IMG/VR virus record: IMGVR_UViG_3300001199_000001
Coordinates: 5,404-69,403 of that record
Length of the DNA: 64,000 nucleotides
Reading direction: 5' to 3' (one strand)
Origin: a virus
Taxonomy: Duplodnaviria; Heunggongvirae; Uroviricota; Caudoviricetes
Part shown: positions 3,837 through 52,034 of the stretch, one piece after another
How positions within the stretch are numbered: the stretch's first letter is position 1
How the letters are laid out: every line of letters starts with the position of its first letter
Made by a program: the position numbers and the translations under genes
The notes under the pieces: model-generated
Told to the model about the DNA's origin: nothing
What the model saw: only the letters and a program-made list of their open reading frames with translations
The model's database searches: none

Positions 3837-4051
3837 TGGACACCGGCTCGAAAATCTTTGTCACCTTCGTTCTGTTCTTCCTGAGCGCCACTGCTACGGT
3901 TAGCAACCTTCAGGTCGAATCACTGCTGCGTCTGGCGAAGGCTGCCGTCCATGACGAGGACGTGGCTAAGCCGTCGACTAACGATAGGGTGACCTGCTTT
4001 CTCCCCGTGGTCATCGCGGCTTTAGGTATTTTTGCGGTCTGGACTAACTAA
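3836..4051 (+). CDS. small membrane protein
   Basis: two hydrophobic helices; TAATG coupling to HNH gene. Confidence 0.5.
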   Translation: MDTGSKIFVTFVLFFLSATATVSNLQVESLLRLAKAAVHDEDVAKPSTNDRVTCFLPVVIAALGIFAVWTN

Positions 4052-4086
4052 AAAATCATCAACGAGAAAAACAAAGGAAACACCCT

Positions 4087-4497
4087 ATGTCGGACACCCT
4101 CGAACTCGTCCAAACCACAGCCGCCACCTCGGGTCTCGTCTTTGACGCCAGTGGCAACATCGTCGACCACCCGGTCATTGAACAGCCGACGGAGCGCCAG
4201 ATCGTCCTCTGGACGGAGACCGGCGAGACCATCGAGATGGTCGATCTCGAACTGCGTTCTGATGCCGTGCCGCTCGAAGATTTCGACGCCGCCCTGAACC
4301 GCTGGCAACTGGCGCGCATGACCAAGCCGGGCAAGGCCAACAAGAACTTCATGCGCGAGTTCCCGTTCGAATACCTCGTCGAACTGGCCTACCGGGGGCG
4401 CTCCGGGCTCGCGAGCCTGTCGGTCCTGCAATGGAAGCCGACCGTCGTTGTCGTCGGTGAAGGCGTCATCGGATCGGCAATTCATCCCGGTGAATAA
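4087..4497 (+). CDS. hypothetical protein
   Basis: AAAGGAAACACCCT-ATG RBS; 136 aa. Confidence 0.6.
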   Translation: MSDTLELVQTTAATSGLVFDASGNIVDHPVIEQPTERQIVLWTETGETIEMVDLELRSDAVPLEDFDAALNRWQLARMTKPGKANKNFMREFPFEYLVELAYRGRSGLASLSVLQWKPTVVVVGEGVIGSAIHPGE

Positions 4498-6555: not shown

Positions 6556-6635
6556 GCGAAGCCATCATTGTCGGTAGTCTCGTCTACATCTCCGGCCTCC
6601 TGACCCTGATCTATTTCAGACTGGGTGAAAAATGA
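6552..6635 (+). CDS. possible 27-aa hydrophobic micro-protein (GTG start)
   Basis: VSEAIIVGSLVYISGLLTLIYFRLGEK; overlapping start/stop at both ends. Confidence 0.3.
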   Translation: MSEAIIVGSLVYISGLLTLIYFRLGEK

Positions 6636-6865
6636 CCGCACGCATCCCCACCACCACCGTAGCCGAACTCAACACCCTCGACGACGCCGAGATCATCGAA
6701 GGCTACTGGGACGGTTTCAACGGCGAGCCCGCGCCCGGCGATAACCGATCCCTCAGGTATTGGCACGGTTGGCGCAACGGCGCTGTCGATGGTGGTTTCA
6801 TCGAGAAGGACGACGCTCAAGCTGCGTTAGCTAAGGAAGTCGTGGCGGGGTGGAAGAAAAAATGA
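6632..6865 (+). CDS. small protein with Rmf-like (ribosome modulation factor) motif, tentative
   Basis: EGYWDGFNGEP...NRSLRYWHGWRNGA resembles Rmf RGYQAGIAGRS...RSQWLGGWREA. Confidence 0.4.
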   Translation: MTARIPTTTVAELNTLDDAEIIEGYWDGFNGEPAPGDNRSLRYWHGWRNGAVDGGFIEKDDAQAALAKEVVAGWKKK

Positions 6866-7866: not shown

Positions 7867-8352
7867 ATGCTGATCCTCTACACCCTGGTCCGGACCGACA
7901 TGCCCTCCATGGGTTACGGCAAGGGCGCGGCCCAAGCCCAGCACGCCGCAACCGCCTTCTCTGAATTCGAAATGCTGCGCCCGCTGGAAGCTGATGGCGA
8001 GATCGACGCCGACGTAATGGAATGGCGCAAGTCCACCAACCAAGGCTTCGGCACCAAGCTGACCCTCGATTGCTCCGACAAAGAGACGATGATCAAGGTC
8101 GTCGCCGCCGCACGCAAGCTCGGCTTCCCGGCGCGTGTGGTCACCGACCCGACCTACCCCTACCTCGTATCCGACGAAATCGTCCCGCTGATCGATAAGG
8201 CCGTCCACACCGACGATCCGAAATCCATCGGCGGCGGGCAGTCGATCTGCTTCCGTGAAGAGAAGACCTGCGCCTACGTCTTCGGTCTGAAGGACGATGT
8301 CAGCATCCTGCTGTCGCGGTTCAAACTACTGCCGAATGAGCCTGTTGCATGA
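7867..8352 (+). CDS. PTH2-family peptidyl-tRNA hydrolase-like protein
   Basis: LVRTDMPSMGYGKGAAQAQHAA matches PTH2 VVRxDLxMxxGKxAAQxxHAA. Confidence 0.6.
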   Translation: MLILYTLVRTDMPSMGYGKGAAQAQHAATAFSEFEMLRPLEADGEIDADVMEWRKSTNQGFGTKLTLDCSDKETMIKVVAAARKLGFPARVVTDPTYPYLVSDEIVPLIDKAVHTDDPKSIGGGQSICFREEKTCAYVFGLKDDVSILLSRFKLLPNEPVA

Positions 8353-11873: not shown

Positions 11874-12179
11874 TTATCGTCCGTCATCCAGATTGCTGCG
11901 GGCCATGTCCAACATCTCAACGAACCACGTCGCGGCTGCGTAGCCTTGAAGGACGATCACGTTCTGGGCCTGTTCCATCTGCTTGCCGACCCGCTCCGCA
12001 TGCATCGCCTTGACCTCGATATAGAGACTGTCGTCGGGCAGAAAGAAATCGAGTGCCGTTGTGTTCTCCGGCTCCTTCTCGTGGAAGTAGCGGATACCCG
12101 CCCGGTCCATGCCGCCCGCGACATAGGCTTCCAGTGGATCGGAGATGACGACTGCCTTTCTAATAGTCGACAATGTCAT
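11874..12179 (-). CDS. VRR-NUC / PD-(D/E)xK-like nuclease, tentative
   Basis: ALDFFLPDDSLYIEVKAMHAE (D...EVK motif); internal ATG chosen to limit overlap with the DHH gene. Confidence 0.45.
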   Translation of the reverse strand: MTLSTIRKAVVISDPLEAYVAGGMDRAGIRYFHEKEPENTTALDFFLPDDSLYIEVKAMHAERVGKQMEQAQNVIVLQGYAAATWFVEMLDMARSNLDDGR

Positions 12180-13047
12180 CGCCTTCCCAGCCAATCGGCA
12201 TCCGGAAACCCGAAGCCCGCGCATGCCCGCCGCCGCCATACTTCACAGCAATCTGCGAGACATCCATCCCGTCGTCCGCCGACCGCAGGCTGAAAATGCG
12301 ATCACTGAGGCCGTCGTAATAGGTTGCCGCGAACGGCTTGTCCTTGGACATGATGTTCCCGGCGTCAGACCCCATGGTGTAAGGCACGTTCGCTACCGGC
12401 ACGCGGACACCGCCGATGACCATCTCGCGGGTCGTCTCTTCAAGAAGCGCTAGAATGTCCTTCTGCATACGGCGTTCGATAGCAGCGCCTTGGCTGATGA
12501 AGCTCGCTTCCATGACAGCGTCTTCCAGCCCCTTCGCCACATAAGACCACTCGGCGAAATCGTAGGGATAGCTGAACAGGTTCGCTGCGACTTCTCGCGA
12601 ATGTTTCATCTCGAATTTCCACAGGTCTCGGTCCTGCACGTAGCGCACCAGCAGGGGCGCAGGCTCGCCGGGATGAGCATACTCCCACGCCAGCATCGCC
12701 CCAGACTTATCCATGTCAAAGAAAGCCTGGATATGCGGATAGCCGTCGGCGGCGAGCACGCGCGGATCGTACAGTTTATCGACCCTATACTGCGCAAGGT
12801 CTTCCATGGCGCTCTTGTGGTGGTCGACAATCGTGATCGAAGCCGCCTTCTTGGCGAGCGCTTCCAGCACCGGACGCTTAAACGAATAGTCGACGAGCAG
12901 CACGTGCTTTCCCGCGACATCCGGTAGTTCGCCGTTGCTGTATGATCCCGGCCGAAATTCGATATCAGGCCAGCGCTTCCAGATCGCCCACGCCGCCGTG
13001 AACCCGTCCGCGCAGGGGGCGTGGTAGATGCAAATGTCGGGCTTCAT
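12160..13047 (-). CDS. DHH-family phosphoesterase
   Basis: APCADGFTAAW...VLLVDYS...IVDHH motifs. Confidence 0.75.
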   Translation of the reverse strand: MKPDICIYHAPCADGFTAAWAIWKRWPDIEFRPGSYSNGELPDVAGKHVLLVDYSFKRPVLEALAKKAASITIVDHHKSAMEDLAQYRVDKLYDPRVLAADGYPHIQAFFDMDKSGAMLAWEYAHPGEPAPLLVRYVQDRDLWKFEMKHSREVAANLFSYPYDFAEWSYVAKGLEDAVMEASFISQGAAIERRMQKDILALLEETTREMVIGGVRVPVANVPYTMGSDAGNIMSKDKPFAATYYDGLSDRIFSLRSADDGMDVSQIAVKYGGGGHARASGFRMPIGWEGDDIVDY

Positions 13048-16690: not shown

Positions 16691-17317
16691 TTACCCTCGG
16701 ATTTCTCTGATCGTCTCGTACTTGCGATGCGCCGGATTCCAGTAGAGCACCGGCTCTTTAACGACCGGTGTCCGCCGGAGAGACGGGTCGAGCGAGAAGA
16801 CCGCTTTCTTGACCGTCTCGTCAGTGACATTGAACCGCTTGCCGACTTCCGTGAAGCTCTTTCCTGCGCGGACCAACTTCAAGGCTTCGTTATAATCGAA
16901 GGTCCGTGGCCGACCTCGAATTTCGGATTTAAGGCGAGGGTTCTGTGTCTTGATGGCATACCAGATCGCCGCCCCGCTCACCTTGTACTTTTTGATCAGC
17001 GCGGTGATCTTGCTACCGGTGATATAATCGTTATAGGCCGCCTCATGATCGAACTTCCGTCGCCGAACGAGGGCAGTTCCCCTGACGATAACATCTCGAC
17101 CGAACTGGAGGTCAGGGTCAACGCGTTTGATGGCGCTGCGAACGGTCCGCTCGTGAATGCCTAAGTCCTTGGCGATCTCGGAGACCTTGGCGCCCGCCAC
17201 GTAGGCGTCATAAGCCTGCTGGTCGTAATTTGGGCGGACCTTCTTGCTGACCTTCTTATGAGACGCTGCCTTTGGTCGCTTAAAGGTCGTTTTTTCGAGG
17301 GTTTGGACGGTGGTCAA
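16691..17317 (-). CDS. DNA-binding protein with three tandem HTH repeats
   Basis: three repeats of Y(D/N)xYxxGxK(V/I)(S/T)E(I/V)xK..GxxxxT(V/I)xxA(I/V)K..(D/N)P. Confidence 0.6.
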   Translation of the reverse strand: MTTVQTLEKTTFKRPKAASHKKVSKKVRPNYDQQAYDAYVAGAKVSEIAKDLGIHERTVRSAIKRVDPDLQFGRDVIVRGTALVRRRKFDHEAAYNDYITGSKITALIKKYKVSGAAIWYAIKTQNPRLKSEIRGRPRTFDYNEALKLVRAGKSFTEVGKRFNVTDETVKKAVFSLDPSLRRTPVVKEPVLYWNPAHRKYETIREIRG

Positions 17318-17628
17318 GCTTCGCTCTCCTTGAGTTTAGCGACAAGCGCCGCATGGCTGGAGATAAGAAAGCCAATGGGGTCTGTGCCGCAGCCTACAGC
17401 CCCTTTTGTCAGGGCTTGTAGATAATCACAGACCTTTCGCTGTTCAGGCGAGTATCCGCCTTCTGATGTTGGAGCATTGTTTATTAACGCTTGCTGAACA
17501 ACATCATAGCCGTACATGTCGGCAGCTAGGACTGTGTTTATAGCCCGGACGGCCTCGGCATAGCCTGCCTGCCTTCCGGTCTCGTAGAGTTCTTCGTCCG
17601 GCGTAAGCACGGGTTCGCTTGCTGTCAT
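17314..17628 (-). CDS. hypothetical protein
   Basis: 104 aa ORF; first gene after leaderless promoter. Confidence 0.5.
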   Translation of the reverse strand: MTASEPVLTPDEELYETGRQAGYAEAVRAINTVLAADMYGYDVVQQALINNAPTSEGGYSPEQRKVCDYLQALTKGAVGCGTDPIGFLISSHAALVAKLKESEA

Positions 17629-17634
17629 AATCCT

Positions 17635-17663
17635 ACAATAGGACTAGGACAAGCTACTGTCAA
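17635..17663 (-). promoter_or_regulatory. sigma70-like promoter TTGACA-N17-TATTGT, 6 nt before ATG (leaderless)
   Basis: minus-strand TTGACA (plus 17658-17663), -10 TATTGT (plus 17635-17640), ATG at 17628. Confidence 0.5.
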
Positions 17664-17677
17664 GCGTGTTGACAATG

Positions 17678-18034
17678 CTAAATTGTCAAACTAGCACGGG
17701 CTTGCGCAGCGATAGCCCTAAAGGCTAGGGGGTCTGCCGCCAGATCAGCCATGATCTTGCGGTCAATTGCGACGCCCGCCTTTTCCAGGCCATGCACCAG
17801 CGTGGAATAGGTCAGACCCTCCAGTCGCGCAGCCGCGTTTATCCGTTGAATCCACAGGGCGCGGAAACTGCGCTTCTTGTTGCGGCGGTCACGATAAGCA
17901 TATTGCCCGGCCTTATCGACCGCAGCCTTGGCGGTACGGATTGTGCTCTTGCGCCGCCCTGAGAAGCCCTTGGCCTGCTCCAGAACGTTCTTGTGACGGG
18001 CGTGAGACGTGACGCCCCGTTTGACACGAGCCAT
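17678..18034 (-). CDS. rplT: 50S ribosomal protein L20 (bL20)
   Basis: [30 protein letters not shown]...; AAAGGA RBS. Confidence 0.85.
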
Positions 18035-18058
18035 ATCAAATTCCTTTAGATCGAGGGC

Positions 18059-18256
18059 TTAAGCGTAAGGCATGTAGGTTTTGATCTTCGCCGTGTCGGC
18101 GTCGCTCATCACCTTCGTGCCTCGGTTCTGACGGATGTATTTGCCGTTATGGCTAATCAAGCGGTGGCGCTTACCGGCGACACCTGCTTTGATCTTGCCC
18201 GCAGCCGTGATCTTGAAGCGCTTTTTGGCGCCTGACTTAGTCTTCAGTTTCGGCAT
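18059..18256 (-). CDS. rpmI: 50S ribosomal protein L35 (bL35)
   Basis: [23 protein letters not shown]...; AGAGGA RBS. Confidence 0.85.
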
Positions 18257-18333
18257 TTCGGTCCTCTGGACTACGTAAAAAGAATCGCCAAGGCATGCCA
18301 TGAGCCCGGCGATCCGAAGAGGTGTCTAATAAC

Positions 18334-18594
18334 CTACGTGAAGGTCTTAGTCACCTTCGGCGTCAACGTCACGATCCGCACCGGAGCCTTGAATACCCGG
18401 AAGTGCTCCGCTGCCGCCACCTCGGCGTCCTTATAGGTCGCAGGCCAGCGGAATGGATCGCCCATCATGAACCAGCGTGACGCGTGCGGACGGTATGTCT
18501 GAAGCTGATAAACCGTCATCCGGGCGAGGTATTCGGCTTCGGTCGTGGTGTCGGCCGCCATCTTAAGCTGCGTCTGCGTCAGGCCCTTAACCAT
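18334..18594 (-). CDS. hypothetical protein
   Basis: internal start MVKGLTQTQL preferred; not infC-like. Confidence 0.45.
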   Translation of the reverse strand: MVKGLTQTQLKMAADTTTEAEYLARMTVYQLQTYRPHASRWFMMGDPFRWPATYKDAEVAAAEHFRVFKAPVRIVTLTPKVTKTFT

Positions 18595-19506: not shown

Positions 19507-19686
19507 TTATGGGCCTTCTTTCAGAGCTTCCTCGTACATACTCTGCGCGATCCGCCGCCACTTCCGGCGCTCTAACAACGGTATGCCGAACCACGAACCG
19601 CCGTGACCTTCCCCCGCGTGCGCGCTCAATTGCGCGTACTGGCCATACATGGCGACAGCGAGGAGTTCCCGCTCGACGAGGGTCAT
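19507..19686 (-). CDS. hypothetical 59-aa protein
   Basis: MTLVERELLAVAMYGQYAQL...; ATGA coupling with upstream gene, fills gap. Confidence 0.4.
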   Translation of the reverse strand: MTLVERELLAVAMYGQYAQLSAHAGEGHGGSWFGIPLLERRKWRRIAQSMYEEALKEGP

Positions 19687-20129
19687 GAAGGGAAATACTC
19701 TTCAAGATCGAGGAACGCGCCGACATCGTCGCCCAGCCGAACCGTTCGCGTGATTTGTTCCTCCCCTGAACCACGGACAAGATCACCATCGCCAAGGAGG
19801 GCGATTACCGGAGGCTCACATCGGAAGATCAACCCACGGCTCTCGACCCCAGCGAAGTTGCGCATCTTGACGCGGTTGCCCTTCGAGCCGCCGAGCATGC
19901 CCTTGGACTTACCTTCTTCCCAATAGCCGCGCTCCTTGAGCACGTCTTCAGGGACGATGGCGTTCTCTGGAATGTAGGCGACAACATCGCCCGGCGCCCA
20001 ACGCAGGTTGCCGTCATCATCCAGATTGGCGACGACCTCAGGGAAGTCGCCCTCCAGGGTGACTATGGAGAGGCGGGGCGCGACTGGGTGGAGACGGACG
20101 GCTTTGACGGTGGTGATAGGGGCTTTCAT
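19683..20129 (-). CDS. hypothetical protein
   Basis: 148 aa ORF. Confidence 0.55.
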   Translation of the reverse strand: MKAPITTVKAVRLHPVAPRLSIVTLEGDFPEVVANLDDDGNLRWAPGDVVAYIPENAIVPEDVLKERGYWEEGKSKGMLGGSKGNRVKMRNFAGVESRGLIFRCEPPVIALLGDGDLVRGSGEEQITRTVRLGDDVGAFLDLEEYFPS

Positions 20130-20149
20130 CAGGACAGGCTACTAACAGC

Positions 20150-20533
20150 TTATCCCGATGTCAACACATTATCACGTCCCCGCATCAACCGCATGAGCAC
20201 CGCGCGCAGGGCTGATTGCTCGTAAGGCTTCTGAAGGAAGGGCAGGGTCTGATCCGGGACATTCTCCTTGTTATAACCGGTTGACAGCACAAAGGGGATT
20301 CCACGTCCTTGGAGTGCAGTAGCTACCGGGCAGCTATACACTCCGTTCAGGTTGAGGTCGAGAACCGCCATGTCTATCGACTCACTCTCGATGATCGCGA
20401 GAGCCTGCTCGACGCGTGCTGCGGGACCTATGACCTTGCAACCAAGGTCGGCTAACATGTCTTCCAGCACCCAGGAAACCATGAGTTCGTCCTCGACTAC
20501 GAGGACGCGGCGACCCAACAGCGGGCTAGTCAT
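20150..20533 (-). CDS. single-domain response regulator (CheY-like receiver, LovR-like)
   Basis: RVLVVEDELMV...VIGPA...IDMAVLDLNL...PFVLSTGY receiver motifs. Confidence 0.8.
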   Translation of the reverse strand: MTSPLLGRRVLVVEDELMVSWVLEDMLADLGCKVIGPAARVEQALAIIESESIDMAVLDLNLNGVYSCPVATALQGRGIPFVLSTGYNKENVPDQTLPFLQKPYEQSALRAVLMRLMRGRDNVLTSG

Positions 20534-21602
20534 TGGGGCTACGTCCATGACCCTTCGGAAGGGGCATAACGACTTCACACGAAACGCCGGATGGATCGTA
20601 ATCCAATCGGACTTCGCCGTTCAACTCTTGGGCAAGGCCGCGCTCGATAAGGCGAGAACCGAAGCCTTTGCGGGTGGGCTGCACGAGGCGCGGTCCGCCG
20701 CTTTCCTTCCACAGTAGTCGCATCCATTCGCCATCGGCTCGACATTCAACGCCCCAGGACATAGTAACCCGCCCGTCGTCTACCGAGAGTGCGCCATATT
20801 TTGCCGAGTTGGTGGCTAGCTCATGGAAAACCATGGCCAGAGACAAAGCCGCCTTAGGCCGCAAGCGGATATCGGCCTTGGCCTCTAAAGTGAAGCGTTC
20901 CTTTCGCTGATCGTGTAAGCCAAACGGTTCTAGGATAAGGTCGACCACGTTACGCAGCACCACACGGCCCCAACTCGCGCTGCCAAGCAGGCTATGGGTT
21001 TTCGACAACGCGAGGATGCGACCTTCAAACAGTGCAAGAACTTTGCCATCTACGATGCCCCGTAAAGTCTGCCTAGCTATCGCCAGCACGGTTGCGAGCG
21101 TGTTCTGGGTGCGATGGTCTAGTTCATTCAGAAGAAAGCGCAGACGATCTTGCTCCTTCTTGTGGCGCGTAGTGTCCACAAAGGAGGCGAAATGTTGAAC
21201 GACCTCCCCCACTTCGTTCTTGACAGGACTAATGAACACGGTGGCCCACAATACGCTGCCGTCCTTGCGACAATAGCGTATCTCCGTGTCGTGGCCTTCG
21301 CCGTCGTCACGCTCAAAATCGACTTTGATAGCCTCCAACATATCTGGTGCGCCCCCCGGCGCCATCAAGGAGTTAAAGGCCTGCCCAAGTACTTCGCCTC
21401 GACTGTATCCAGTGAGAGCCAAAAAGCTGTCATTAGCGAAAATGAGCGGGTTTCCCGCTGCCTTGGCGTCCGTGAACACCATAGCCATTCGAGTCTGCTC
21501 TGCGGCCACGACAAACGGTCCAAGCTCATCCTTGAACTCTTGAACAACGGCTTCTGCTTTGGCCTGCGCGTTGGCGGGCGTCTTGTGTTGTTCTTCATCC
21601 AT
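20526..21602 (-). CDS. LOV-type PAS domain / HWE (HisKA_2) histidine kinase, LovK-like, lacking the photoactive cysteine
   Basis: GNPLIFANDSFLALTGYSRGEVLGQAFNSLMAP (LOV core with GRNCRFLQG replaced), ...YCRKDGS..W; ELDHRTQNTLATVLAIARQT HWE H-box; C-terminal ATPase. Confidence 0.75.
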   Translation of the reverse strand: MDEEQHKTPANAQAKAEAVVQEFKDELGPFVVAAEQTRMAMVFTDAKAAGNPLIFANDSFLALTGYSRGEVLGQAFNSLMAPGGAPDMLEAIKVDFERDDGEGHDTEIRYCRKDGSVLWATVFISPVKNEVGEVVQHFASFVDTTRHKKEQDRLRFLLNELDHRTQNTLATVLAIARQTLRGIVDGKVLALFEGRILALSKTHSLLGSASWGRVVLRNVVDLILEPFGLHDQRKERFTLEAKADIRLRPKAALSLAMVFHELATNSAKYGALSVDDGRVTMSWGVECRADGEWMRLLWKESGGPRLVQPTRKGFGSRLIERGLAQELNGEVRLDYDPSGVSCEVVMPLPKGHGRSPND

Positions 21603-23060: not shown

Positions 23061-23324
23061 CTAAGCATCGCTACTCACCGGGTCCTTCGCCAGCGCCAAC
23101 GCCTCTTGCAGCGTCTCGACGATCTCTTGAAGTTGTCCTCGCGAGAGCCACATCCAAGCTTTCTCATCCTTGCCTACAGCGAGGTAAACTGGACAGCTTC
23201 TAACCGCGCTGCCCCAGTCAGTCTCCTTCACCTTGACGCGAATAGGGTAGTAGCGCCCAACGGATTTATCCATCAGGATGGTCAGCGGTTTATCGTCATC
23301 GTTTCCTAGATTGCTACCACTCAC
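23061..23324 (-). CDS. hypothetical protein
   Basis: 87 aa ORF. Confidence 0.45.
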   Translation of the reverse strand: MSGSNLGNDDDKPLTILMDKSVGRYYPIRVKVKETDWGSAVRSCPVYLAVGKDEKAWMWLSRGQLQEIVETLQEALALAKDPVSSDA

Positions 23325-24670
23325 GCCGCCACCTCTTTCAGCAGCCCGCCTGTCTTACCCGCCAGATCGAAGTTATTCTCGATGAACTTGATCACCCTGA
23401 GCGCAGGCGTATCCCGCTTGAATACGATGTTCGGTCCGTGGTTATCCAGCATTACAGCTTTAACCCCCGGACGAACCTCAACGAGGTTTTGCGATGTGTT
23501 GGCTCCGCACTGATGCGAGCCACATTCGTTTTGCCACTGCGGCGCGACCTTGACCGGCTCGTGGTCTTCCCTGAACGGTAGATGGGCATGGACGATGCAG
23601 TCGTAGCCAGGATGCTCGCGGAACACCATTCGTTGGCTCTGGCCGCCGACTGATGGCTTGGCGCCGAACGCCACCACCTTATCGTCGCCTTCGTACTCGA
23701 CGCGCACAAGGCCGATTTCCGCTAGCTTGTTGAAGTCCTGTTTGCGTTTGGAAGTGAGGATCGTCTTGTCGTCGATCCGCACAGCAAAATGCCCGACCGT
23801 CGCGCCTCGGAAAGGCTTATAGGCGCCGCGCTCGATGAGGTAGTTGACGACTTCACGTAAATTGTCCGGGATCGCGGGATCATCCCATGCGACCGAGTCG
23901 CCGTGCTGGACTGTGGATCGCGTGAAGGTATTGGTTGATCTCGCCATCACCATCTTGACCAGACCCTTAAGCACCTCATCACGGTCCGTCGTTTCATGGT
24001 AGCGCGCCTCTTCCGGCGTCACGATCATGTTGTTTCGCGTCACCGTATCGTTGGCTAGGACGAGGTTCAGGCTGTCTCGCTTGAGCATATTCAGAGCGAT
24101 GGCGTACTGCTCGTCCGAAGTCGCCCCGGTCGTCGTCTTGAAACCGACCACGAAGATGTCCTTGCGGGTCTTGCGGATTTTACCGATCAGCTTGGTGGCT
24201 GGCGTGAGCACCATATCTTGCTGACCGGCTGAGGTCTTAAGACGTGGTTCATGCGAGCCTGAGGGCGTCGTGACGAAATCAGCATGCCACGTCGAACCAA
24301 GCTGCCCGTCTTCGAGGATCGATCCGTCGTAGTCGCACAGCGCCGCGTTCAGAACGATGACGCGGGTCTCGGGATCAGCGATCAGTTCGTCCAGCAGCGC
24401 GCTGACATCGTCGTTGGTGACGAGCTTGCTGAAATAGGGTTCAGCCATCTTAGTGAGATGAAGGTGCACCGTCTCCTTCATATCTTCAACAGCAACACAG
24501 GCTTCATAAAGGGACCTTATCTTGCCCCCGTTTGTAGCGAGGTCACGAACTGCCGCACCAAACAGTTCGGACAGTCTTCGCGCCGTCTTCCCGAACGCCG
24601 GAGCCGCAAGTGCGAGGTGATTGCGCACGTGGGAGAAAGTCCCGCCGCCGATGATGTGGATTTTCTTCAT
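23321..24670 (-). CDS. two-domain enzyme: N-terminal CoaB/DFP-like (phosphopantothenate-cysteine ligase fold) plus C-terminal class II aldolase/adducin-like domain
   Basis: KKIHIIGGGTFSHVRN...VLNAALCDY...IFVVGFKTTTG...LVLAND (DFP-like); GHFAVRIDD.TILTSKR...GAKPSVGGQS...HPGYDCIVHAHL (class II aldolase). Confidence 0.6.
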   Translation of the reverse strand: MKKIHIIGGGTFSHVRNHLALAAPAFGKTARRLSELFGAAVRDLATNGGKIRSLYEACVAVEDMKETVHLHLTKMAEPYFSKLVTNDDVSALLDELIADPETRVIVLNAALCDYDGSILEDGQLGSTWHADFVTTPSGSHEPRLKTSAGQQDMVLTPATKLIGKIRKTRKDIFVVGFKTTTGATSDEQYAIALNMLKRDSLNLVLANDTVTRNNMIVTPEEARYHETTDRDEVLKGLVKMVMARSTNTFTRSTVQHGDSVAWDDPAIPDNLREVVNYLIERGAYKPFRGATVGHFAVRIDDKTILTSKRKQDFNKLAEIGLVRVEYEGDDKVVAFGAKPSVGGQSQRMVFREHPGYDCIVHAHLPFREDHEPVKVAPQWQNECGSHQCGANTSQNLVEVRPGVKAVMLDNHGPNIVFKRDTPALRVIKFIENNFDLAGKTGGLLKEVAA

Positions 24671-26008: not shown

Positions 26009-26075
26009 GTCAACGTCTCCTGAAGTTAAAGACTACTTCCTCGCGGCGGGCCTGTCAATGTGTTACCAGCGGAAA

Positions 26076-27450: not shown

Positions 27451-28518
27451 TTACCTGACAGCAGTCAACACATTTGGGTTGGGCGCGGTGCGTCTCTGTG
27501 CGTTCGTGTAAGTGAACGGCGCTGTGACTTTTTGCGGATCGCGCGTGACGGGATAGCCCGTAATTTCGGTCGGCCATTGGGCAACCTTATATACCCGCAT
27601 CGAGCGGCGTGTACGACCCGCGACGAAGTCGTTCCAAGCCGTACTAATCAACCCGAACCAAGTGTCCACGTTGAGTGACGAACCGCGACGCAGATTGAGC
27701 GTAACATTGCGCAGCGCTAGGATCGGACTGCCCTTTTCGAGTTCCGCCCCCGACGAAAGCTTGGCAAGAAATTCCGACCACTTGTCGGCATACTCGCCGG
27801 ATGCTGTCGCCATCCAGCCGACCGCGCTGAGCGCCGACATCGAGACTGGCGGTCTGGCGGTATCGATTTTGGAGACGATCTGCTGGATTTCGGGGTGTTG
27901 GCGTACGAAATCGAGCATTTCGTTCTTACTGATCGTATTGTTCCGTGTAGGCAGCAACTGGTTCCACGTGATGATCAGGCGGACCGCAGCGGCGACCTTG
28001 GTCGCTTGGACGATGCCAGCGCCGCTGAGCGTGTCGGAGGCGCTGCGCTTGGCGCCTTGGTCCAGGGTGGAGAAAGTGTCTTCTTCGAGACCGCGAACGA
28101 CCATCATGCGAACCGGGGTCTTGGCGAGGAGGACGGCGGTGAGGCGGTGTTGACCGTTCAGGAGGCGACCGTTGCTAGCAAATTGAATGGGCTCGCCATT
28201 CATCTTCCACATGCCCATGCTCATTTGCCGGGCGAGAGATTCGACATGTTTGCGTCGAATAGGGCGGTTGCCCCAATTGGTGGTCGACAGATACTGATCG
28301 GCGACCTCCGGAGTGATAATTTCGTCCGACCACGAAAGGTGGGATGCGACGTGAACTGATTTGGACTTCGCAGCGGCCATGCCGTTACCTCCTGAGTTGA
28401 TGGTTTCTAACTCATAGTCGCCTTCGTTTCCCGTTGTCAACTCATTAGTGACAGCCTCGATGAACTGAGATTGGGGAGGCTTGGTCCGCCTCGAAAAGAT
28501 CAAATCCATTAGACTCAT
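27451..28518 (-). CDS. ParB-like nuclease domain (ParBc/DUF262-like) protein
   Basis: NGRLLNGQHRLTAV motif resembles DGQ(Q/H)R of ParB/DUF262. Confidence 0.5.
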   Translation of the reverse strand: MSLMDLIFSRRTKPPQSQFIEAVTNELTTGNEGDYELETINSGGNGMAAAKSKSVHVASHLSWSDEIITPEVADQYLSTTNWGNRPIRRKHVESLARQMSMGMWKMNGEPIQFASNGRLLNGQHRLTAVLLAKTPVRMMVVRGLEEDTFSTLDQGAKRSASDTLSGAGIVQATKVAAAVRLIITWNQLLPTRNNTISKNEMLDFVRQHPEIQQIVSKIDTARPPVSMSALSAVGWMATASGEYADKWSEFLAKLSSGAELEKGSPILALRNVTLNLRRGSSLNVDTWFGLISTAWNDFVAGRTRRSMRVYKVAQWPTEITGYPVTRDPQKVTAPFTYTNAQRRTAPNPNVLTAVR

Positions 28519-29630
28519 ACAACCACCCCTCCGTTGGCTGGGTTTTCCCGCACGACGCCGGTCCGTTCGTTGGGCGGGAAACAGAGAGAATAATGCAGAC
28601 CGGTGAAACGATATTCGAGGCGGGCGATGCCGTTGACCTCATTGGGTAGGCCCCTGGTCAAAAGACGCGTTCCGAAGGATGTTTTTTTAGGCCGTTCGAC
28701 ATACGGTCCGCCGCTCTCGTCCCAGCCCAGGCAAATCTCATTTTCACTGACGTGGACGCTGAGATTGACTGCGCCGTTGTATTCCGCGCTCCACGCCCCG
28801 TGCTTGGCGGCGTTAGTGGCCAATTCATGTAAGGCCATGCCAATCGACACCGCGTAATTCGGGTGAAGTTCGATATCCTTGCCGACCACCGTATAAACCT
28901 TGCCGTAAGGTGCGAGCAGGCGGTCGACCAACTCCCGGAAAAACACATGCGACCAGTGATGCTCGACTAGCAGATTATGGGTTTGCGAGAGCGCCATGAG
29001 ACGCTTCTCGAACGTCATCGCGAACTGCTCCTTCGACTCCGCCGCGCGCAAGGTCTGCTGGGCGATGGACTGCACCGACGCGAGTGTGTTCTTGACGCGG
29101 TGGTTCAGTTCGTCGATCAGCAGTTGCTGCCTACGATCATGCTCCTTCAGCGCAATCATCTCGTCCGATTTCTGCTGTAGCGCTAGGTAGGCGGCTTCCC
29201 GGTCACGCAACGCTTCGTCCTTCGCTCGAATCTGGTTTTCGAGCATTGAGGGAGAGGGTATCGCAAGCAGTTGCGGCGTCAAGGGCATCAACATTAATGC
29301 CGTAATCACTGACACTGAGGCGGTGACAGCCTTGAGCAAGGCCTCCACTCCGTAGTGTGGGTTCCACAGCGTCCAGATGGAAAAGAAGTGGGTCGTGCCG
29401 CAGAGCAGGATGAACGACACGAACAGCCAGCCCATCCACCCAAAGCTCAAACCCCTCCGCTTCAATAAGAAATAACCGATGGCGAACGGAATCGAATAAT
29501 ACGCCAGCCCGATAAGCACGTCGGAAGCGACATGGACAATGAGGATGTCAGGGCGCCATAATAAGCAGAGCCCGTGGGGATTTAGAAACTCGGAATCGAA
29601 GAAATATCGAATCCGTTCAATGATATTCAT
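28515..29630 (-). CDS. membrane-anchored HWE (HisKA_2) sensor histidine kinase
   Basis: N-terminal multi-TM domain; ELNHRVKNTLASVQSIAQQT H-box; C-terminal ATPase. Confidence 0.75.
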   Translation of the reverse strand: MNIIERIRYFFDSEFLNPHGLCLLWRPDILIVHVASDVLIGLAYYSIPFAIGYFLLKRRGLSFGWMGWLFVSFILLCGTTHFFSIWTLWNPHYGVEALLKAVTASVSVITALMLMPLTPQLLAIPSPSMLENQIRAKDEALRDREAAYLALQQKSDEMIALKEHDRRQQLLIDELNHRVKNTLASVQSIAQQTLRAAESKEQFAMTFEKRLMALSQTHNLLVEHHWSHVFFRELVDRLLAPYGKVYTVVGKDIELHPNYAVSIGMALHELATNAAKHGAWSAEYNGAVNLSVHVSENEICLGWDESGGPYVERPKKTSFGTRLLTRGLPNEVNGIARLEYRFTGLHYSLCFPPNERTGVVRENPANGGVVV

Positions 29631-31211: not shown

Positions 31212-32683
31212 TTATGCGTTCGCCCCGTTTCCGTTCGGCTTGCGCTTGGCCGGGACGACGGTCTCATTCGGGTGGAGCGTACCCACCGCCTTAGTGACGA
31301 TGGCCTGCCCCTCAGGTGTCTGTGCAAGGCCGGTTAGCATGGAGCCGATAGCCTGACCGCCCTTCGACGAGAACAGATCAGTGATCTTGCCGATGCCGGT
31401 CTGCACGTCGCCGCCGTTGACGATTACCTTCACGTCCGCCGCCTTGATGGCTTCGGCTTGCGCCACCCCGACGACTTGGTTGGCCTTCACCTGCTCGACA
31501 CTGACCAGATAGGTTTGATAGCCGGTGTTGCCGCCGATCTCACGGGCCAATTCCATCTGTGGCGCCACTTCAGCCAGTCCCTTGGCTTTCACGGCTTCAG
31601 CTTCGGCGAGGCCTCGCGCCTGAATGCCTTGAGCTTCCTTGATGGATTCTTCGAGGTTGCCTTCGGCGATCAAAATGGTCTGGTTTTTCTCGCCTTCGGC
31701 TTCGATTCGACGGCGTTCACGAACCGCTTCGGCGTCCACAACGGCGACATTCTTGTCCTGCTCGGCCTTAACCTCAGCCACCGCCTTGTCTTGCTGCGCC
31801 TTGATTTCAGCTACCTGCCGGTTGATCTCGGCGGCCCGTGTCATCTCGACCTGCTTGACCGCGTAATCTTTCTCGGCGGTGGTGCGGGATTCTTCGAGAA
31901 CCTGTTGCTCAGACCGCTGCTTCGCGATGCCGACGGCCTGCTCTTGCTGCGCGGTACGCTCGCCGACCTGTTGTGCGGCTTCCTGTCCAGCCAGATCGAT
32001 CTGACGGCGAGCTTCGATTTCACGCTCTTCGGCTTCGCGATGGTTTTCCGCAACAGCGACGCGGCTTTCCTTCTCGATGCGGGATTTCTCTTTGGCCATG
32101 ATGTTCTCAATGACCTTCGAGCCGTTTGAGTCACGGATGTCCATGAACTCGATGGTCTTGACCGTCTGAACGCCCCATTCCTTCAACTGTCCGTCGACTT
32201 CGGAAGTGAAACGCTCACCGAGCGACGAGCGGTCATGCATGATCGTCTCAAGCTGAGACTGTCCAAGCACGGTCCGGACGGCACCTTGCAGCACGGCGTG
32301 AAGCTGTTCAGTCAGTTCGGCGAAGTTGGCGACGCGGTGCGCGGCTACGTCCGAATCAGCGATCCGGAAGAAGGCCATGACATCGACGCGAAACGGCAGG
32401 CGTCCCTGGTCATAAGCTTCGTAATCCTTCAAGCCGACGTTGAAGACGCTCTCAGGAAGCTCGACCTGCGTGACGCCGAAGAACGGAACGAAACCGGGGA
32501 TTTCATAATAGACGTTCCCGGCTGTCCGGCCCTTGCCGTAGGAAGTCGTTGCTCGGCGTGATTGAACGATGTGCACCATATTGGTTGGTACGACCCGGCG
32601 CAGCACCATCATGATGATGGTTACGAGGACAACGAGGCCAAGCGCCACGCCTCCCCCGATCATTGCAATAATACTACCCATGA
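31212..32683 (-). CDS. SPFH/band-7 (flotillin-like, YqiK-type) protein with long coiled coil
   Basis: N-terminal TM, SPFH core, EA-rich coiled coil; GGAG RBS before ATG 32683. Confidence 0.7.
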
Positions 32684-32697
32684 CTCTGATGCTCCGG

Positions 32698-33252
32698 TTA
32701 TTTTCTGAGGTTTTTGGTGTCGACCTTGACCAAGGCGTCAAGGTGCTTATCGACAGAGGCGACGGCCTCATCACGAAGCTGCTCTTTCATCGCGCCGATG
32801 ATGTTGACGGCGTTCTGCTTGACGAGGTCGATAAAGGCCTCGCTGACGAACTTGCCGACCATCCATTCGGCGCGCGTCTTAGCGCCTTGTTTGTCGTAGT
32901 AGCCGCTGCTGGAAGAGAGTTCCTTGCCGCTCTTGTCGACAAGCTTAGACCAGAAGTCCTTCGATTTTTCGTTCAAGGTATCGCGGATGCTGATCGGCTG
33001 ACCGGCAGCTTGGCCATAAATATCGACAGGCTGGATCGGCTGCGTGAGCATAGACTCAAGCCGGTCATTGAGGAGGTCGTCGATCTTCGATGTGATCTTC
33101 GCGCCTATCGCCTCATCGACGCGTTTATCAATCAAACGACCAACGCGGTCGCCAACGTAGCCGGACGATGCGGCATCATCAGCTAGCTTCCGAGCGGCGC
33201 GCTCAAGGATTTGCTCGCGGATTTCTTCTTGGGAAAGGCCAAGGTCGATCAT
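32698..33252 (-). CDS. hypothetical protein
   Basis: 184 aa ORF. Confidence 0.55.
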   Translation of the reverse strand: MIDLGLSQEEIREQILERAARKLADDAASSGYVGDRVGRLIDKRVDEAIGAKITSKIDDLLNDRLESMLTQPIQPVDIYGQAAGQPISIRDTLNEKSKDFWSKLVDKSGKELSSSSGYYDKQGAKTRAEWMVGKFVSEAFIDLVKQNAVNIIGAMKEQLRDEAVASVDKHLDALVKVDTKNLRK

Positions 33253-33934: not shown

Positions 33935-34021
33935 CGCTGGCTCCTTGAAGCGCTACGATGTCGACCGTATCAAACCCGTGATGGCTGTCAACACCCGCGT
34001 GTCAGCCATCTTGTCACAGGT

Positions 34022-35816: not shown

Positions 35817-36993
35817 ACTGAAGCTCCGGATAGCCCACTAGACGCGCCCTTTGATAGAAGGGCAGGTGCTCGGCGATGACAGTTTTGAAGACCCACGCGC
35901 TGACCTGTTTCTTCATGTCAGCGACTTTGACTTTACGTTCTTCAGTGTCTCCTGTCAACACTTGCAGGACATCGTCGAGTGCTTGGATTTGCATTTCGGT
36001 GCGTTTCTTCGGCAGGAACGGCTCAAGCCATTCCTGCTGATAAGCGCTATCATCGCGAACGTGCGCGTTGCCGATCTTGAGGATTTCTTCTTCCTCGCCC
36101 GCCTTGATATGCATGATCAACGAGCCGACGTGATCGAGCAGCGGTACGCCCGGCGTATTGATGCAGATTTCACAGAGCATTAGATCGGGGTGGGTTTTAT
36201 CGAACACCGCCAGAGCACGGTGGCCACCATGACTCTCAGTCAGCGACGAATGCCGCTTGATCTCGTAAATCGCGTGCTGCCCTTCGACGCGGATCGCCTG
36301 CCCAGCGATAAACATGCGCGTCGTCTCTGGTCCCATCAGCCGTTCAAAAAACCTGATCGACCGCTTGATCACGCGTCGGGCCGCCCTTTGTCGTTCCTTA
36401 AGCAGGTCCCGGACAACTTCGATGTCGTCATCATAATTGGCGTGTACACGCGGGCTCTGGGCTTGGCGCAGGAGGCGATGGTAAGCTTCTCGGCTGGCTT
36501 GGTAGCGCTCATCGACCATCGCCCTCACGGCGTGCATGTCGTCGACTGTGGCTGTGCGGAAATCACTGGCCGAGCGTCGAAGAGCGCGCCGGATTACTTC
36601 AAGCGATGTCGCCGCGCAGTATCGGTCTTCGACAGCTTGCAGGGCTTTCGCCCCCCAGCGAGCAAAGCCGTTGTCCACAGAATGACTAGCCATCGTTAGG
36701 ATGGATTCAGACAGCATGTGACGGAGAGCCATAGCGCCCTGCATCGACGCCAGCAGTCGCTCGGGTGGGTTCTGCGCCCGCCAGCCTATATAACGCTCTT
36801 CGAGGTGCAGACCCATCGCCACCAGCCCGCGCCAGTGCGGTGACTGCGGGCCGTCGCGACAGAGTCCTTCGGTCTCGTCCATAACGGCGTTGGCGTTCGG
36901 CTCCAACTCCATCATCCAGTAGTAGGTGTCGCCAGCGATATGCCCGGCCTCCATGGCGCCGTCGAGCACGTACTGAACGTCAGGCGCGGGCAT
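35809..36993 (-). CDS. hypothetical protein
   Basis: 394 aa ORF. Confidence 0.65.
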   Translation of the reverse strand: MPAPDVQYVLDGAMEAGHIAGDTYYWMMELEPNANAVMDETEGLCRDGPQSPHWRGLVAMGLHLEERYIGWRAQNPPERLLASMQGAMALRHMLSESILTMASHSVDNGFARWGAKALQAVEDRYCAATSLEVIRRALRRSASDFRTATVDDMHAVRAMVDERYQASREAYHRLLRQAQSPRVHANYDDDIEVVRDLLKERQRAARRVIKRSIRFFERLMGPETTRMFIAGQAIRVEGQHAIYEIKRHSSLTESHGGHRALAVFDKTHPDLMLCEICINTPGVPLLDHVGSLIMHIKAGEEEEILKIGNAHVRDDSAYQQEWLEPFLPKKRTEMQIQALDDVLQVLTGDTEERKVKVADMKKQVSAWVFKTVIAEHLPFYQRARLVGYPELQCG

Positions 36994-42046: not shown

Positions 42047-42811
42047 TTAGGGGATCGACGCCAGTCGCAATGTTCCGTGTCGCGGAAAATTCACTGCGTC
42101 TACAGTCGAGCTTCCAGTAGCTTGGCAGCAGATGATCGCAGAAGGCCCGCCGCCGTTCCCGTTAAACACGCCGACAGCTAAGTTACCGCTGGCGAATGCT
42201 TCTGAATCGAGATTGGTCCGCCAAGATAATACTAAGGGAAGGCCGTCCTGTTTACCCTCTTCGTATGGCGTATGGCCGTGGACGATGTGAGGCCAGTCCG
42301 GGAAACCCGCTTCACTATTCAAGAAGAGGCCTCTGATCCACATCATCGTATTTGCGTCTTGCTCGGTTAAAGGCACGTGAGGCCTAAAGCCTGCATGCAC
42401 GAATACTCGCCCGGCTTTTTCGACGACGTAGGGTAGGTTCTCGATCCACCGAATGTGGGCGGACGGGATCAGTGGCCAGTAGTTGGGCTTACCCCATCCG
42501 ACCTCGCCACCGTAGCTCTCAATGGCCATTTCCCCACCGTTGTCCTGCCAGAAGCGAACCTCTGAACGTGTACGGAGGGTGTAAGCCTCAAGCATCAACT
42601 GCTCGTGGTTGCCCCGTAGGCAGGTGACATTATCCTGCGTCGATAGCTCGATCAGCTTGTCTAGAACCTGCTTCGATTGCGGGCCACGGTCGACGTAGTC
42701 GCCTAGAAAGACGATCTCATGCTCTTGCCCCGACGCGTGAGCGGCAATCGCGTCGAGCGCCTGCGTCAGCAGATCATACCGTCCGTGGATATCGCCGATA
42801 GCGAAAATCAT
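42047..42811 (-). CDS. PPP-family Ser/Thr protein phosphatase (lambda phosphatase/ApaH-like metallophosphoesterase)
   Basis: IGDIHGRYD...VFLGDYVDRGP...LRGNHE motifs. Confidence 0.75.
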   Translation of the reverse strand: MIFAIGDIHGRYDLLTQALDAIAAHASGQEHEIVFLGDYVDRGPQSKQVLDKLIELSTQDNVTCLRGNHEQLMLEAYTLRTRSEVRFWQDNGGEMAIESYGGEVGWGKPNYWPLIPSAHIRWIENLPYVVEKAGRVFVHAGFRPHVPLTEQDANTMMWIRGLFLNSEAGFPDWPHIVHGHTPYEEGKQDGLPLVLSWRTNLDSEAFASGNLAVGVFNGNGGGPSAIICCQATGSSTVDAVNFPRHGTLRLASIP

Positions 42812-44706: not shown

Positions 44707-44766
44707 CAGGGAGCCTCGCGGGGGTCTGTGTGTGGCCCCTAAGCTAGGGAGCCCTGCGACATTCTG

Positions 44767-45162
44767 TCAACCCTCAGATCGCAGCATTCCCTTCGGCGGC
44801 GGCGCCTTCGGCTTTTTTGGCGGCGGCCCGTTGCTATCCTCATCGCGCTCGCGTTGTATTTCTCGCAATATTGTGTCATAGTTGTATGGACGTTCGAGGA
44901 GATAGTCGAAAGCACCGGCTTTTGGTCGGTGGACGCGGCTGAAATAAGTCGAGCACCACCAGTCTCGCGGATTTCGCATTTGTGGGAAGATTAACCGAAT
45001 GCCGGGCGCGTCGCAGCCAAATCCCGATGTACATGCGTGCGGGGTGGAGCGGCCGATCATGATTTCGGCGACCCGATAAAGTCGCCGCTTCTCAATCGCT
45101 ACTTTACCATCGGTCGCTGTATATAAAGCGACTACGAAATCACCCGCCGCAAGATCGGTCAT
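44767..45162 (-). CDS. tandem paralog family protein (copy 3)
   Basis: shares GDFV...Y.V.EI...C...G..L...WC..F...YRPK.GAFDYLL with next two genes. Confidence 0.55.
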   Translation of the reverse strand: MTDLAAGDFVVALYTATDGKVAIEKRRLYRVAEIMIGRSTPHACTSGFGCDAPGIRLIFPQMRNPRDWWCSTYFSRVHRPKAGAFDYLLERPYNYDTILREIQRERDEDSNGPPPKKPKAPPPKGMLRSEG

Positions 45163-51257: not shown

Positions 51258-52034
51258 ATGACCACCCTTAGGCGTTACGCGGACCATGCTGATTGGCCTA
51301 TAGCAGACTACCGTTGCACCTACCCCGGCCGATTTATGCCAAACGGCGGTGGTTCGATCATTCTCGGTGATCTCGATAGCCGGGGACGACATTATGCCGC
51401 TGCCGGTGGCCAGTATATCGAAGTCGATTTATCTAGGACGATTTTGTCATTAACCGACGCCGTGGGACTAGCGGATTTTATCCGCGATCTCACGCTTCAA
51501 ATGGGCAACATCTATCCGTCTATCGAACTCTATAGCGGTAATTTTTACGATTTCCGGAACATCGAGGATAATGAGATCGACATCGAGGATGTCGCTCATT
51601 CGCTCTCGATGCAGTGTCGGTTTGGCGGCCACTGTTCGGAGTTCTATTCGATTGCCGAGCACTCGGTCAGGGCATCGTTCATCGATCCCGATCATGACGC
51701 CTTTGACAAACTTATGCACGACGCCGCCGAGAGTGTGGCGGTTGATTTGCCTACTCCGTTCAAACGTCTCCTGCGGGATTACACCCGAATTCTAGAGCGC
51801 ATCGAGGCAAACTTCGCAGATGTCTTTGGCCACCGGCACCCGCTCCCTGAGTCAGTAAAACATGCAGACCTGACCATGCTCGCGACGGAGAAGCGCGATC
51901 TTAAGAAGACGAACAATCAGTGGGGAATGCTCGAAGGCGTGCCGACCCTGCCCGACATCATCCAGCCGTGGACTCAGAAGCAAGCGAAACAAGCCTTTTT
52001 GGATCGCTACGAGCAACTGAAACACACGGCGTAA
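51258..52034 (+). CDS. HD-domain phosphohydrolase
   Basis: VAHSLSMQCRFGGHC..FYSIAEHS...LMHDAAE...DLPTP. Confidence 0.65.
   Translation: MTTLRRYADHADWPIADYRCTYPGRFMPNGGGSIILGDLDSRGRHYAAAGGQYIEVDLSRTILSLTDAVGLADFIRDLTLQMGNIYPSIELYSGNFYDFRNIEDNEIDIEDVAHSLSMQCRFGGHCSEFYSIAEHSVRASFIDPDHDAFDKLMHDAAESVAVDLPTPFKRLLRDYTRILERIEANFADVFGHRHPLPESVKHADLTMLATEKRDLKKTNNQWGMLEGVPTLPDIIQPWTQKQAKQAFLDRYEQLKHTA

Follow-up and report, generated by a model that had tools for sequence, protein, structure and literature searches.

A jumbo phage related to phiCbK and the Bertelyviruses carries an apparently host-derived rpmI–rplT module with its leader hairpin

An rpmI–rplT cassette among phage genes

Two adjacent ribosomal protein genes, rpmI (bL35) and rplT (bL20), lie on the minus strand of a 64,000-nucleotide (nt) stretch of DNA from a tailed phage (Caudoviricetes; positions 5,404 to 69,403 of the IMG/VR record IMGVR_UViG_3300001199_000001). 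This whole stretch is referred to below as the window, and all coordinates are positions within it unless another record is named. The parts of the cassette formed by the two genes, with their Shine-Dalgarno (SD) sequences and the leader upstream of rpmI, are as follows.

18282..18315, minus strand: hairpin in the rpmI leader, a candidate L20 operator; 34 nt, reading GGAUCGCC-GGGC-[UCAUGGCAU]-GCCU-U-GGCGAUUC
18277..18281, minus strand: run of five U (U5) directly 3′ of the hairpin; joined to the UUC of the stem it reads UUCUUUUU
18262..18267, minus strand: SD sequence of rpmI, AGAGGA, with the ATG 5 nt downstream; an AGAGGAC box is also kept in cellular leaders
18059..18256, minus strand: rpmI, ribosomal protein bL35, 65 amino acids (aa), stop codon included in the coordinates
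18042..18046, minus strand: SD sequence of rplT, AAGGA, inside the rpmI–rplT spacer, with the ATG 7 nt downstream; AAGGA is also kept in cellular spacers
17678..18034, minus strand: rplT, ribosomal protein bL20, 118 aa, stop codon included in the coordinates

A first-pass annotation of the window, made from the letters of the sequence and a list of open reading frames (ORFs), had called rpmI and rplT genes with good ribosome binding sites (RBSs) inside a phage genome. Both genes are genuine and lie where that annotation placed them. The bL35 protein matches Pfam Ribosomal_L35p (PF01632; 70.8 bits, cut-off 28.9) and the NCBIfam equivalog rpmI_bact (TIGR00001; 68.3 bits, cut-off 51.2). The bL20 protein matches Ribosomal_L20 (PF00453; 142 bits, cut-off 30.8) and the equivalog rplT_bact (TIGR01032; 140.9 bits, cut-off 65.65). 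Residues 1-64 of the phage bL35 align over the full length with bL35 chains from ribosome structures. Residues 1-116 of the phage bL20 align with residues 1-117 of the bL20 chains, and its two-domain build, a long basic N-terminal extension followed by a C-terminal globular domain, is complete. The RBSs are indeed present in front of both genes, and the spacer between rpmI and rplT is 24 nt long.

The annotation had further described infC, thrS and pheS as absent and the neighbouring genes as foreign to the infC-rpmI-rplT-pheST operon. Searches by tblastn with Caulobacterales infC, pheS and pheT and with Vibrio thrS bear out the first point, as none of these four genes was found in the 64-kb window save for one chance-level match (E = 0.11). 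The second point holds as well: the flanking ORFs at 18334-18594 and 17314-17628 are phage ORFans that match no Pfam and no PHROG family. Phage ORFs adjoin the cassette at close spacing on both sides and share its strand.

The window belongs to a relative of phiCbK-like jumbo phages

The portal gene (48447-50246) matches phrog_145 (E 7e-109), and the portal protein is 58-59% identical at the aa level to phiCbK-type portals over 97% of its length. The major capsid gene shares 76-79% nt identity with those of the Caulobacter Bertelyviruses and Brevundimonas phage Bajun, and 78% with that of CcrSC. A scaffold protein and tail proteins are also encoded in the window, and base composition is even along it. 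The exact bL20 and bL35 proteins were found on one 278,859-bp JGI contig, and the same gene order occurs in a second contig record, a 70.9-kb Logan contig (SRR2043728). The annotation had named one outcome that would overturn it, namely that the contig is a bacterial chromosome with a rearranged rpmI–rplT locus. The portal, capsid, scaffold and tail genes and the 279-kb contig say otherwise.

The window is distantly related to the phiCbK/Bertelyvirus jumbo phages (Dolichocephalovirinae), which infect Caulobacter and Brevundimonas; the resemblance lies in the portal, the major capsid gene, the structural gene set and a jumbo genome size of >200 kb. Unlike this phage, none of the deposited phiCbK-like/Bertelyvirus phages has L20 or L35. 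Synteny with the cultured relatives was tried as a guide and proved uninformative: the accessory region around the cassette has only one gene, a 148-aa ORF, in common with a 30-kb stretch of CcrSC.

Origin in Caulobacterales, age and selection

In a search of 5.8 billion protein sequences, the nearest cellular relatives of both proteins were from Caulobacterales, at 80-84% identity for bL20 and up to 92% for bL35, and no cellular protein among them was identical to either. Among named genomes, the phage bL20 is 72-79% identical to the proteins of Caulobacter, Caulobacteraceae and Brevundimonas, and mostly ≤70% identical to those of Sphingomonadales and Hyphomicrobiales. One top-scoring match (P0002/L002; ena:ERZ28770148 k141_3651898) was rejected as a close phage relative. 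Its score is inflated by an assembly duplication artefact, the “L20” on this 1-kb contig being 184 aa long with its first ~66 residues repeated internally.

In a neighbour-joining tree of L35 plus L20 with bootstrap, the phage falls inside the Caulobacterales clade (98% bootstrap), beside uncultured Caulobacteraceae (70%). The annotation had asked whether the cassette is host-derived or divergent, and this nesting points to a host origin. The terminal branch of the phage is ordinary for L35 and ~3 times longer for L20.

The Caulobacterales relatives carry the usual infC...rpmI-rplT-pheST arrangement. Shared with that operon are the order of rpmI and rplT, the short spacer with AAGGA, the leader hairpin, the AGAGGAC box and proteins that are 80-92% identical. 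Apart from its lower GC content at third codon positions (GC3) and its longer L20 branch, the phage differs in lacking infC, pheST, the host terminator and the host promoter region. Homology between the DNA of the cassette and that of cells runs from ~60 nt before the rpmI ATG to the stop codon of rplT, 3′ of which a phage promoter-like sequence takes the place of the cellular terminator and pheS. By this comparison the module was evidently taken in one piece, consisting of the leader hairpin, both RBSs and both ORFs, without infC, pheST or the host terminator.

Pairwise comparisons of the phage genes with their closest cellular copies gave a proportion of synonymous differences (pS) of 0.42-0.75, which is near saturation. 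The ratio of nonsynonymous to synonymous change (dN/dS) was 0.05-0.15 overall and for rpmI, and 0.08-0.14 for rplT. GC3 of the two cassette genes is 0.66 and 0.73, compared with 0.675 ± 0.06 for the phage neighbours and 0.78-0.94 for the cellular orthologues. Because synonymous sites are near saturation, dN/dS is low and GC3 is at the phage level, we infer that the cassette is an old, ameliorated resident of the phage lineage that is kept by purifying selection. It does not appear to be a recent capture, a chimera or decaying passenger DNA.

Change has been uneven along bL20. The dN of the N-terminal extension is 0.03-0.08 versus 0.21-0.24 for the C-terminal domain, and few positions in the N-terminal half depart from the Caulobacterales majority. 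The C-terminal domain holds 12 of the 14 phage-unique residues, six of them at positions that are invariant in 19 Caulobacterales. Overall, the comparisons strongly indicate that the rpmI–rplT module is of host origin and that the phage carrying it is a jumbo phage of the phiCbK/Bertelyvirus kind with a Caulobacterales host.

A conserved hairpin in the rpmI leader

The annotation had proposed a check for a conserved L20 autoregulatory structure upstream of the genes. A conserved and covarying hairpin was found there, in an unexpected form, and its connection with L20 is that of a candidate. In the phage it consists of an 8-bp stem (P1), a 1-nt bulge and a 4-bp stem (P2). The same hairpin precedes rpmI in every Caulobacterales locus found and in many other Alphaproteobacteria (cellular loci L006-L092 and L098-L104). 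In the consensus, P1 is CCGCC/GGCGG extended to 8 bp, P2 is NGGC/GCCN′ and the loop ends in GGCAU or GGGCU.

Across 69 distinct leaders, 91.7% of the stem cells in the alignment are paired; shuffles reach 77.2%, and sliding the partner leaves 32-51%. Double-sided changes occur in 9 of the 12 pairs, and the observed covariation score was reached by none of 500 shuffles. RNAalifold independently gave the same hairpin. The presence of G·U pairs on this strand indicates a structure at the level of RNA rather than a DNA site.

When a covariance model was built from the cellular leaders only, it matched the phage at 18277-18319 with 39.2 bits (E about 8e-9), a score within the range of seven independent cellular loci (31-47 bits). 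The model found no second significant copy in the 64-kb window, where the next match scored 15.5 bits, and it matched none of the other phage loci or gammaproteobacterial rpmI loci examined. Folded alone, the phage hairpin has an energy of -18.9 kcal/mol (z -3.4). Only four of its 34 nt are changed relative to the nearest cellular leaders, fewer than expected at the divergence of synonymous sites (P ≤ 1.4e-4). Three of these changes lie in pairs of P1, and none of the 12 stem pairs is broken: the changed pairs are now G·U (A-U in most leaders), U-A (C-G in most) and C-G (an A·G mismatch in L014). From this pattern the hairpin seems clearly to have been kept intact by selection in the phage.

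Known L20 leaders include the E. coli rpmI operator, the Bacillus leader RF00558 and a candidate motif of Deltaproteobacteria, and the hairpin resembles them as a structured RNA in front of the L35 and L20 genes. Two consecutive G-C pairs and an AA dimer are common to the known L20 leaders and the 23S site (PMC7247131). In the hairpin, two consecutive G-C pairs are nearly invariant: the one at alignment columns 18-36 is kept in 68 of the 69 leaders and the one at 19-35 in 67. An AA precedes the conserved loop in the consensus and is found in most cellular copies; at this place, UCAU or UAAU stands in the phage and in its nearest relatives. What sets it apart from the known leaders is its scaffold, one bulged hairpin of 12 bp whose loop has a conserved GGCAU or GGGCU, and an E. 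coli-like pseudoknot is unsupported. The pseudoknot considered would have joined this loop to a downstream AUGCU or CGCUC box. It was rejected, as perfect matches were present in 16 of 76 cases versus 15.3 ± 3.3 in shuffles and swapped loop types scored equally well.

The surveys of ribosomal leaders considered here place L20 leaders only in Gammaproteobacteria, Firmicutes and, as a candidate, Deltaproteobacteria (including PMC7247131). Rfam 15 gave no match at E ≤ 10 in the phage cassette region and none on the hairpin in a cellular locus, and no Rfam family reached its gathering score anywhere in the window. Position and conservation make the hairpin a candidate L20 operator, and it could be the L20 ribosomal leader missing so far from Alphaproteobacteria. 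A by-product of this analysis is thus a covariation-supported hairpin before rpmI across Alphaproteobacteria that lies outside Rfam, and of which the phage copy is a natural “minimal” version.

The hairpin and the U5 run that follows it were not called by a simple terminator scan, owing to the 9-nt loop and the bulge. It is conceivable, as speculation, that they act as an attenuator or terminator. A second small hairpin lies between the SD sequence and the ATG in the closest Caulobacteraceae and is absent from the phage. We considered a phage-specific deletion and rejected it: seven cellular metagenome loci also lack this hairpin, so that the phage resembles some cellular lineages in this respect.

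Rarity of L20 and L35 genes among viruses

Among 50,697 deposited phage records, an L20-like sequence was detected in 15 and an L35-like sequence in one, and no phiCbK-like phage was among these. Three of the 15 were inspected (L095, CAKLQH020000014.1; L096, MK672802.1; L097, MT121966.1), and all have the host context thrS-infC-rpmI-rplT(-pheST). They represent host chromosome in a phage-labelled record or an overshooting prophage prediction. Searching IMG/VR with a diverse L20 profile gave four loci, three of which resemble host flanks: two have infC just upstream near the contig end (one of them also thrS), and the third holds a fragment of L20 where its contig ends. The fourth, a divergent stand-alone L20 (Pfam, 125 bits; 55% identical to that of the window), is encoded at 3998-4372 of IMGVR_UViG_3300044800_000405 (50 kb; L107). 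This gene lies mid-contig and adjoins a 794-aa ORF, with no L35, infC or pheS within 4 kb, and the contig has two PHROG matches. It may be an independent viral acquisition of L20, in which case the viral L20 described here may not be unique. Two PHROGs of “unknown function,” phrog_19526 and phrog_25434, are homologues of L20 and L35 (148.6 and 53.3 bits with the proteins of the window).

Several searches were made for sibling phages with the cassette. An IMG/VR scan with the phage L20 detected none, and neither did a pattern search for the leader plus rpmI or a metagenome scan with the neighbouring 104-aa protein. The flanking 215-aa and 208-aa proteins, used as probes, gave two domain-level matches only, both without the cassette. 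Nor is L20 or L35 encoded near the closest relatives of the 148-aa gene on long contigs.

As a class, virus-encoded ribosomal proteins are already known. Those named in the parts of the literature considered here are bS21, bL12, bL9, bL31, bL33, bS6, uS9, uS15, HPF, S1 and S4, and they are mostly peripheral and exchangeable (PMC6375957, PMC7162821). The search set of Mizuno et al. (2019; PMC6375957) included hidden Markov models for L20 and L35, and neither protein is named among the viral ribosomal proteins in the text or supplementary results tables of that study considered here. For huge phages, the corresponding sections of Al-Shayeb et al. (2020; PMC7162821) give S1, S4, S21 and L7/L12. 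The six ribosomal proteins claimed for PhiMa05, as the claim is described, do not include L20 or L35, and that claim is disputed.

The cassette fits a virus-encoded ribosomal protein gene in that it lies in a viral genome, has viral genes on both sides and no host-operon context, and is not at a contig end. It is also like the cases described in these accounts (Mizuno et al., 2019; Al-Shayeb et al., 2020) in consisting of host-derived genes among viral genes, under purifying selection and presumably used during infection. It differs from them in comprising the early-assembly core protein bL20 and its operon partner bL35 as a two-gene module with a host cis-regulatory leader, and both proteins are outside the exchangeable set of bS21, bL12, bL9, bL31 and bL33, as that set is presented (PMC6375957). 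New in the present case is that the homology between cassette and cells reaches upstream of rpmI into a hairpin without an Rfam match.

Possible roles during infection

bL20 is buried in the 23S rRNA and acts as an autogenous repressor of its own operon, and we know of no regulatory role for bL35. In E. coli, L20 uses its N-terminal extension for assembly, and feedback control needs no more than the C-terminal domain (PMC1888825). bL20 is an early-assembly protein, and extra rplT rescues a 50S assembly defect through the N-terminal domain (PMC6962249). Because the assembly-specific N-terminal extension of L20 and the whole of L35 are the best conserved parts of the phage proteins, we favor an on-ribosome role over a purely regulatory one. 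The retention of bL35 alongside bL20, at 92% identity, was counted toward a role in assembly.

We give an even chance to the interpretation that phage bL20 and bL35 are supplied for 50S assembly during infection, under feedback through the leader. Both proteins would be made during infection and built into new 50S subunits, and the phage would in this way ensure or increase the availability of an assembly component that is limiting, at a time when the expression of host genes is being taken over. Free L20 would still exert feedback on the cassette through the retained hairpin, either by translational repression or by attenuation at the hairpin and U-run. A more far-reaching proposal, which we regard as possible and advance tentatively, is that the phage intervenes in ribosome biogenesis instead of exchanging peripheral proteins on finished ribosomes, with phage-made bL20 seeding new 50S subunits that contain the phage forms of bL20 and bL35 and the leader joining or titrating the L20 feedback loop of the host.

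According to the accepted picture, viruses take loosely bound, exchangeable ribosomal proteins that are able to replace the host copies on mature ribosomes. Judging from the long-kept combination of bL20, bL35 and the RNA leader of the host, some jumbo phages may put resources into the making of ribosomes or into control over that process, and the phage may act on ribosome building, beyond finished ribosomes alone. If the proposal on ribosome biogenesis is true, this would apparently be the first virus-borne early-assembly ribosomal protein and the first virus-borne ribosomal leader. Relatives of the phage infect Caulobacter, a genetically tractable model, which makes the idea directly testable. 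The annotation had envisaged a strategy aimed at the host translation apparatus in general. What the evidence favors is ribosome assembly or the supply of ribosomal proteins over a general attack on translation, and a strategy of either kind can be proposed only conditionally.

Several points weigh against supply for 50S assembly. Expression of the proteins, their incorporation into ribosomes and the binding of L20 are predictions made from sequence. The large subunit has roughly 33 proteins, and supplying two of them cannot by itself raise ribosome output unless those two are limiting. Since bL20 and bL35 are outside the loosely bound, exchangeable viral set, as that set is given by Mizuno et al. 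(PMC6375957), simple replacement in mature ribosomes is unlikely. The clustering of phage-unique residues on the C-terminal, RNA-binding face of L20 could mean an altered specificity. The AA dimer of known L20 leaders is missing from the phage and its nearest relatives (loop UCAU). With no related phage found to carry it, the cassette is so far a single-lineage trait.

That last point would also be expected if the cassette were a functionless passenger, host DNA brought in by illegitimate recombination and still to be lost, and jumbo phages do carry much accessory DNA. However, synonymous sites are near saturation while dN/dS is 0.05-0.15, GC3 is fully at the phage level, and both ORFs, both RBSs and the hairpin are intact. 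A neutral fragment that old would have decayed, and for this reason a passenger is very improbable. Even closer to negligible is an artefact, in which a chimeric assembly, bacterial chromosome or prophage flank would have contributed an ordinary rpmI–rplT locus. Such an explanation accounts for the deposited “phage” L20 hits that were inspected and for three of the four IMG/VR hits, given their host-operon context or position at a contig end. Here, in contrast, the flanking ORFs on both sides are phage genes, closely spaced on the same strand, infC, pheST and thrS are missing from the entire 64 kb, and codon composition is phage-like. In addition, the best of the 5.8 billion proteins reach 84% and 92% and none is identical, and the JGI and Logan contigs show the same arrangement.

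The remaining alternatives take the genes to be functional. The cassette could be an insurance, standing in for host bL20 and bL35 once the cell stops making them. The cause of the stop could be host shut-off induced by the phage, a starvation response, or a host defence or toxin hitting ribosomal protein mRNAs. Such an insurance would be a conditional-benefit form of supply for 50S assembly, and it draws on the same evidence of functional genes under selection; the peptidyl-tRNA hydrolase of the PTH2 type encoded in the window would fit translation that is kept running under stress. Nothing points to a defence or shut-off that singles out bL20 and bL35, however, and sequence does not separate this idea from unconditional supply; we consider it unlikely. 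We are more skeptical still of a regulatory hijack, in which phage bL20 is mainly an off-ribosome repressor that binds the host rpmI leader hairpin and shuts down the synthesis of host bL35 and bL20 and with it new ribosome assembly. In a variant, bL20 controls phage mRNAs. In either form, bL35 would be carried along only by translational coupling. The known autogenous repression by L20, for which the C-terminal domain alone is sufficient (PMC1888825), and the presence of the same hairpin in Caulobacterales hosts agree with such a role, and the C-terminal domain is the most changed part of L20, which could reflect retuned RNA binding. Yet conservation is strongest in the N-terminal extension, which a pure repressor could do without, and bL35 is under equally strong purifying selection (dN/dS about 0.05). 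The single copy of the hairpin in the 64-kb window gives no sign of a phage regulon, and repressing host L20 would be self-defeating when the phage L20 mRNA bears the same operator.

Transcription context

Six sigma-70-like sites of the form TTGACA-N15-19-TAnnnT occur in the window, compared with 0.9 expected. All are on the coding strand, and five lie directly before ORF starts.

17635..17663, minus strand: TTGACA-17-TATTGT, just after rplT; the ATG of the 104-aa gene is 6 nt past the -10 box
20136..20164, minus strand: TTGACA-17-TAGCCT, before the 148-aa gene; the nearest such site upstream of the cassette
26030..26058, minus strand: sigma-70-like site
33964..33991, minus strand: sigma-70-like site
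35930..35958, minus strand: sigma-70-like site
44741..44770, minus strand: sigma-70-like site

The cassette probably ends at the site at 17635..17663, where the next unit would begin. Plausibly, rpmI and rplT are the last genes of one transcription unit that would start at the 148-aa gene. Two of the six sites place the ATG exactly 6 nt after the -10 box, which is the geometry of a leaderless mRNA. The region 17625-17700 (minus strand) folds at -19.7 kcal/mol (z -2.4) and has no U-run. In it, the stop codon of rplT lies between the two arms of a perfect 8-bp inverted repeat (TTGACAAT/ATTGTCAA), and the -35 box of the downstream promoter-like site is overlapped by another stem.

Other genes in the window

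No tRNAs were detected in the window. The 148-aa protein (19683-20129, minus strand) belongs to a family that is widespread on large, jumbo-phage-sized contigs. Of 30 family members, 19 have a PHA02142 OB-fold domain and eight have a tRNA_bind domain; the window's own copy is below threshold for both and has a weak match to a phage “RNA ligase” PHROG. The following accessory genes were also identified.

7867-8352, plus strand: PTH2-type peptidyl-tRNA hydrolase domain (PF01981, 38.3 bits, cut-off 23; phrog_1866)
12160-13047, minus strand: DHH phosphoesterase
20150-20533, minus strand: stand-alone response-regulator receiver
20526-21602, minus strand: HWE-type histidine kinase
23321-24670, minus strand: 449-aa protein with DFP-like and class II aldolase-like domains
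28515-29630, minus strand: HWE-type histidine kinase
31212-32774, minus strand: SPFH/Band 7 protein
42047-42811, minus strand: NinI-like Ser/Thr phosphatase
51258-52034, plus strand: dNMP phosphatase

One of the two HWE kinases begins with a domain that resembles the N-terminal domain of ethylene receptors (ETR1_N, 123 bits). The other contains a PAS domain, and its gene is directly 5′ of the receiver gene. Together, the kinases and the receiver look like a phage-borne two-component system of the alphaproteobacterial type.

The annotation had grouped two further ORFs with the ribosomal protein genes. The supposedly Rmf-like ORF at 6632-6865 has no Pfam match even at E ≤ 1, and that assignment is dropped. 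The PTH2-like hydrolase at 7867-8352 is real, its score being well above the Pfam cut-off, and it is a second translation-related gene in the window.

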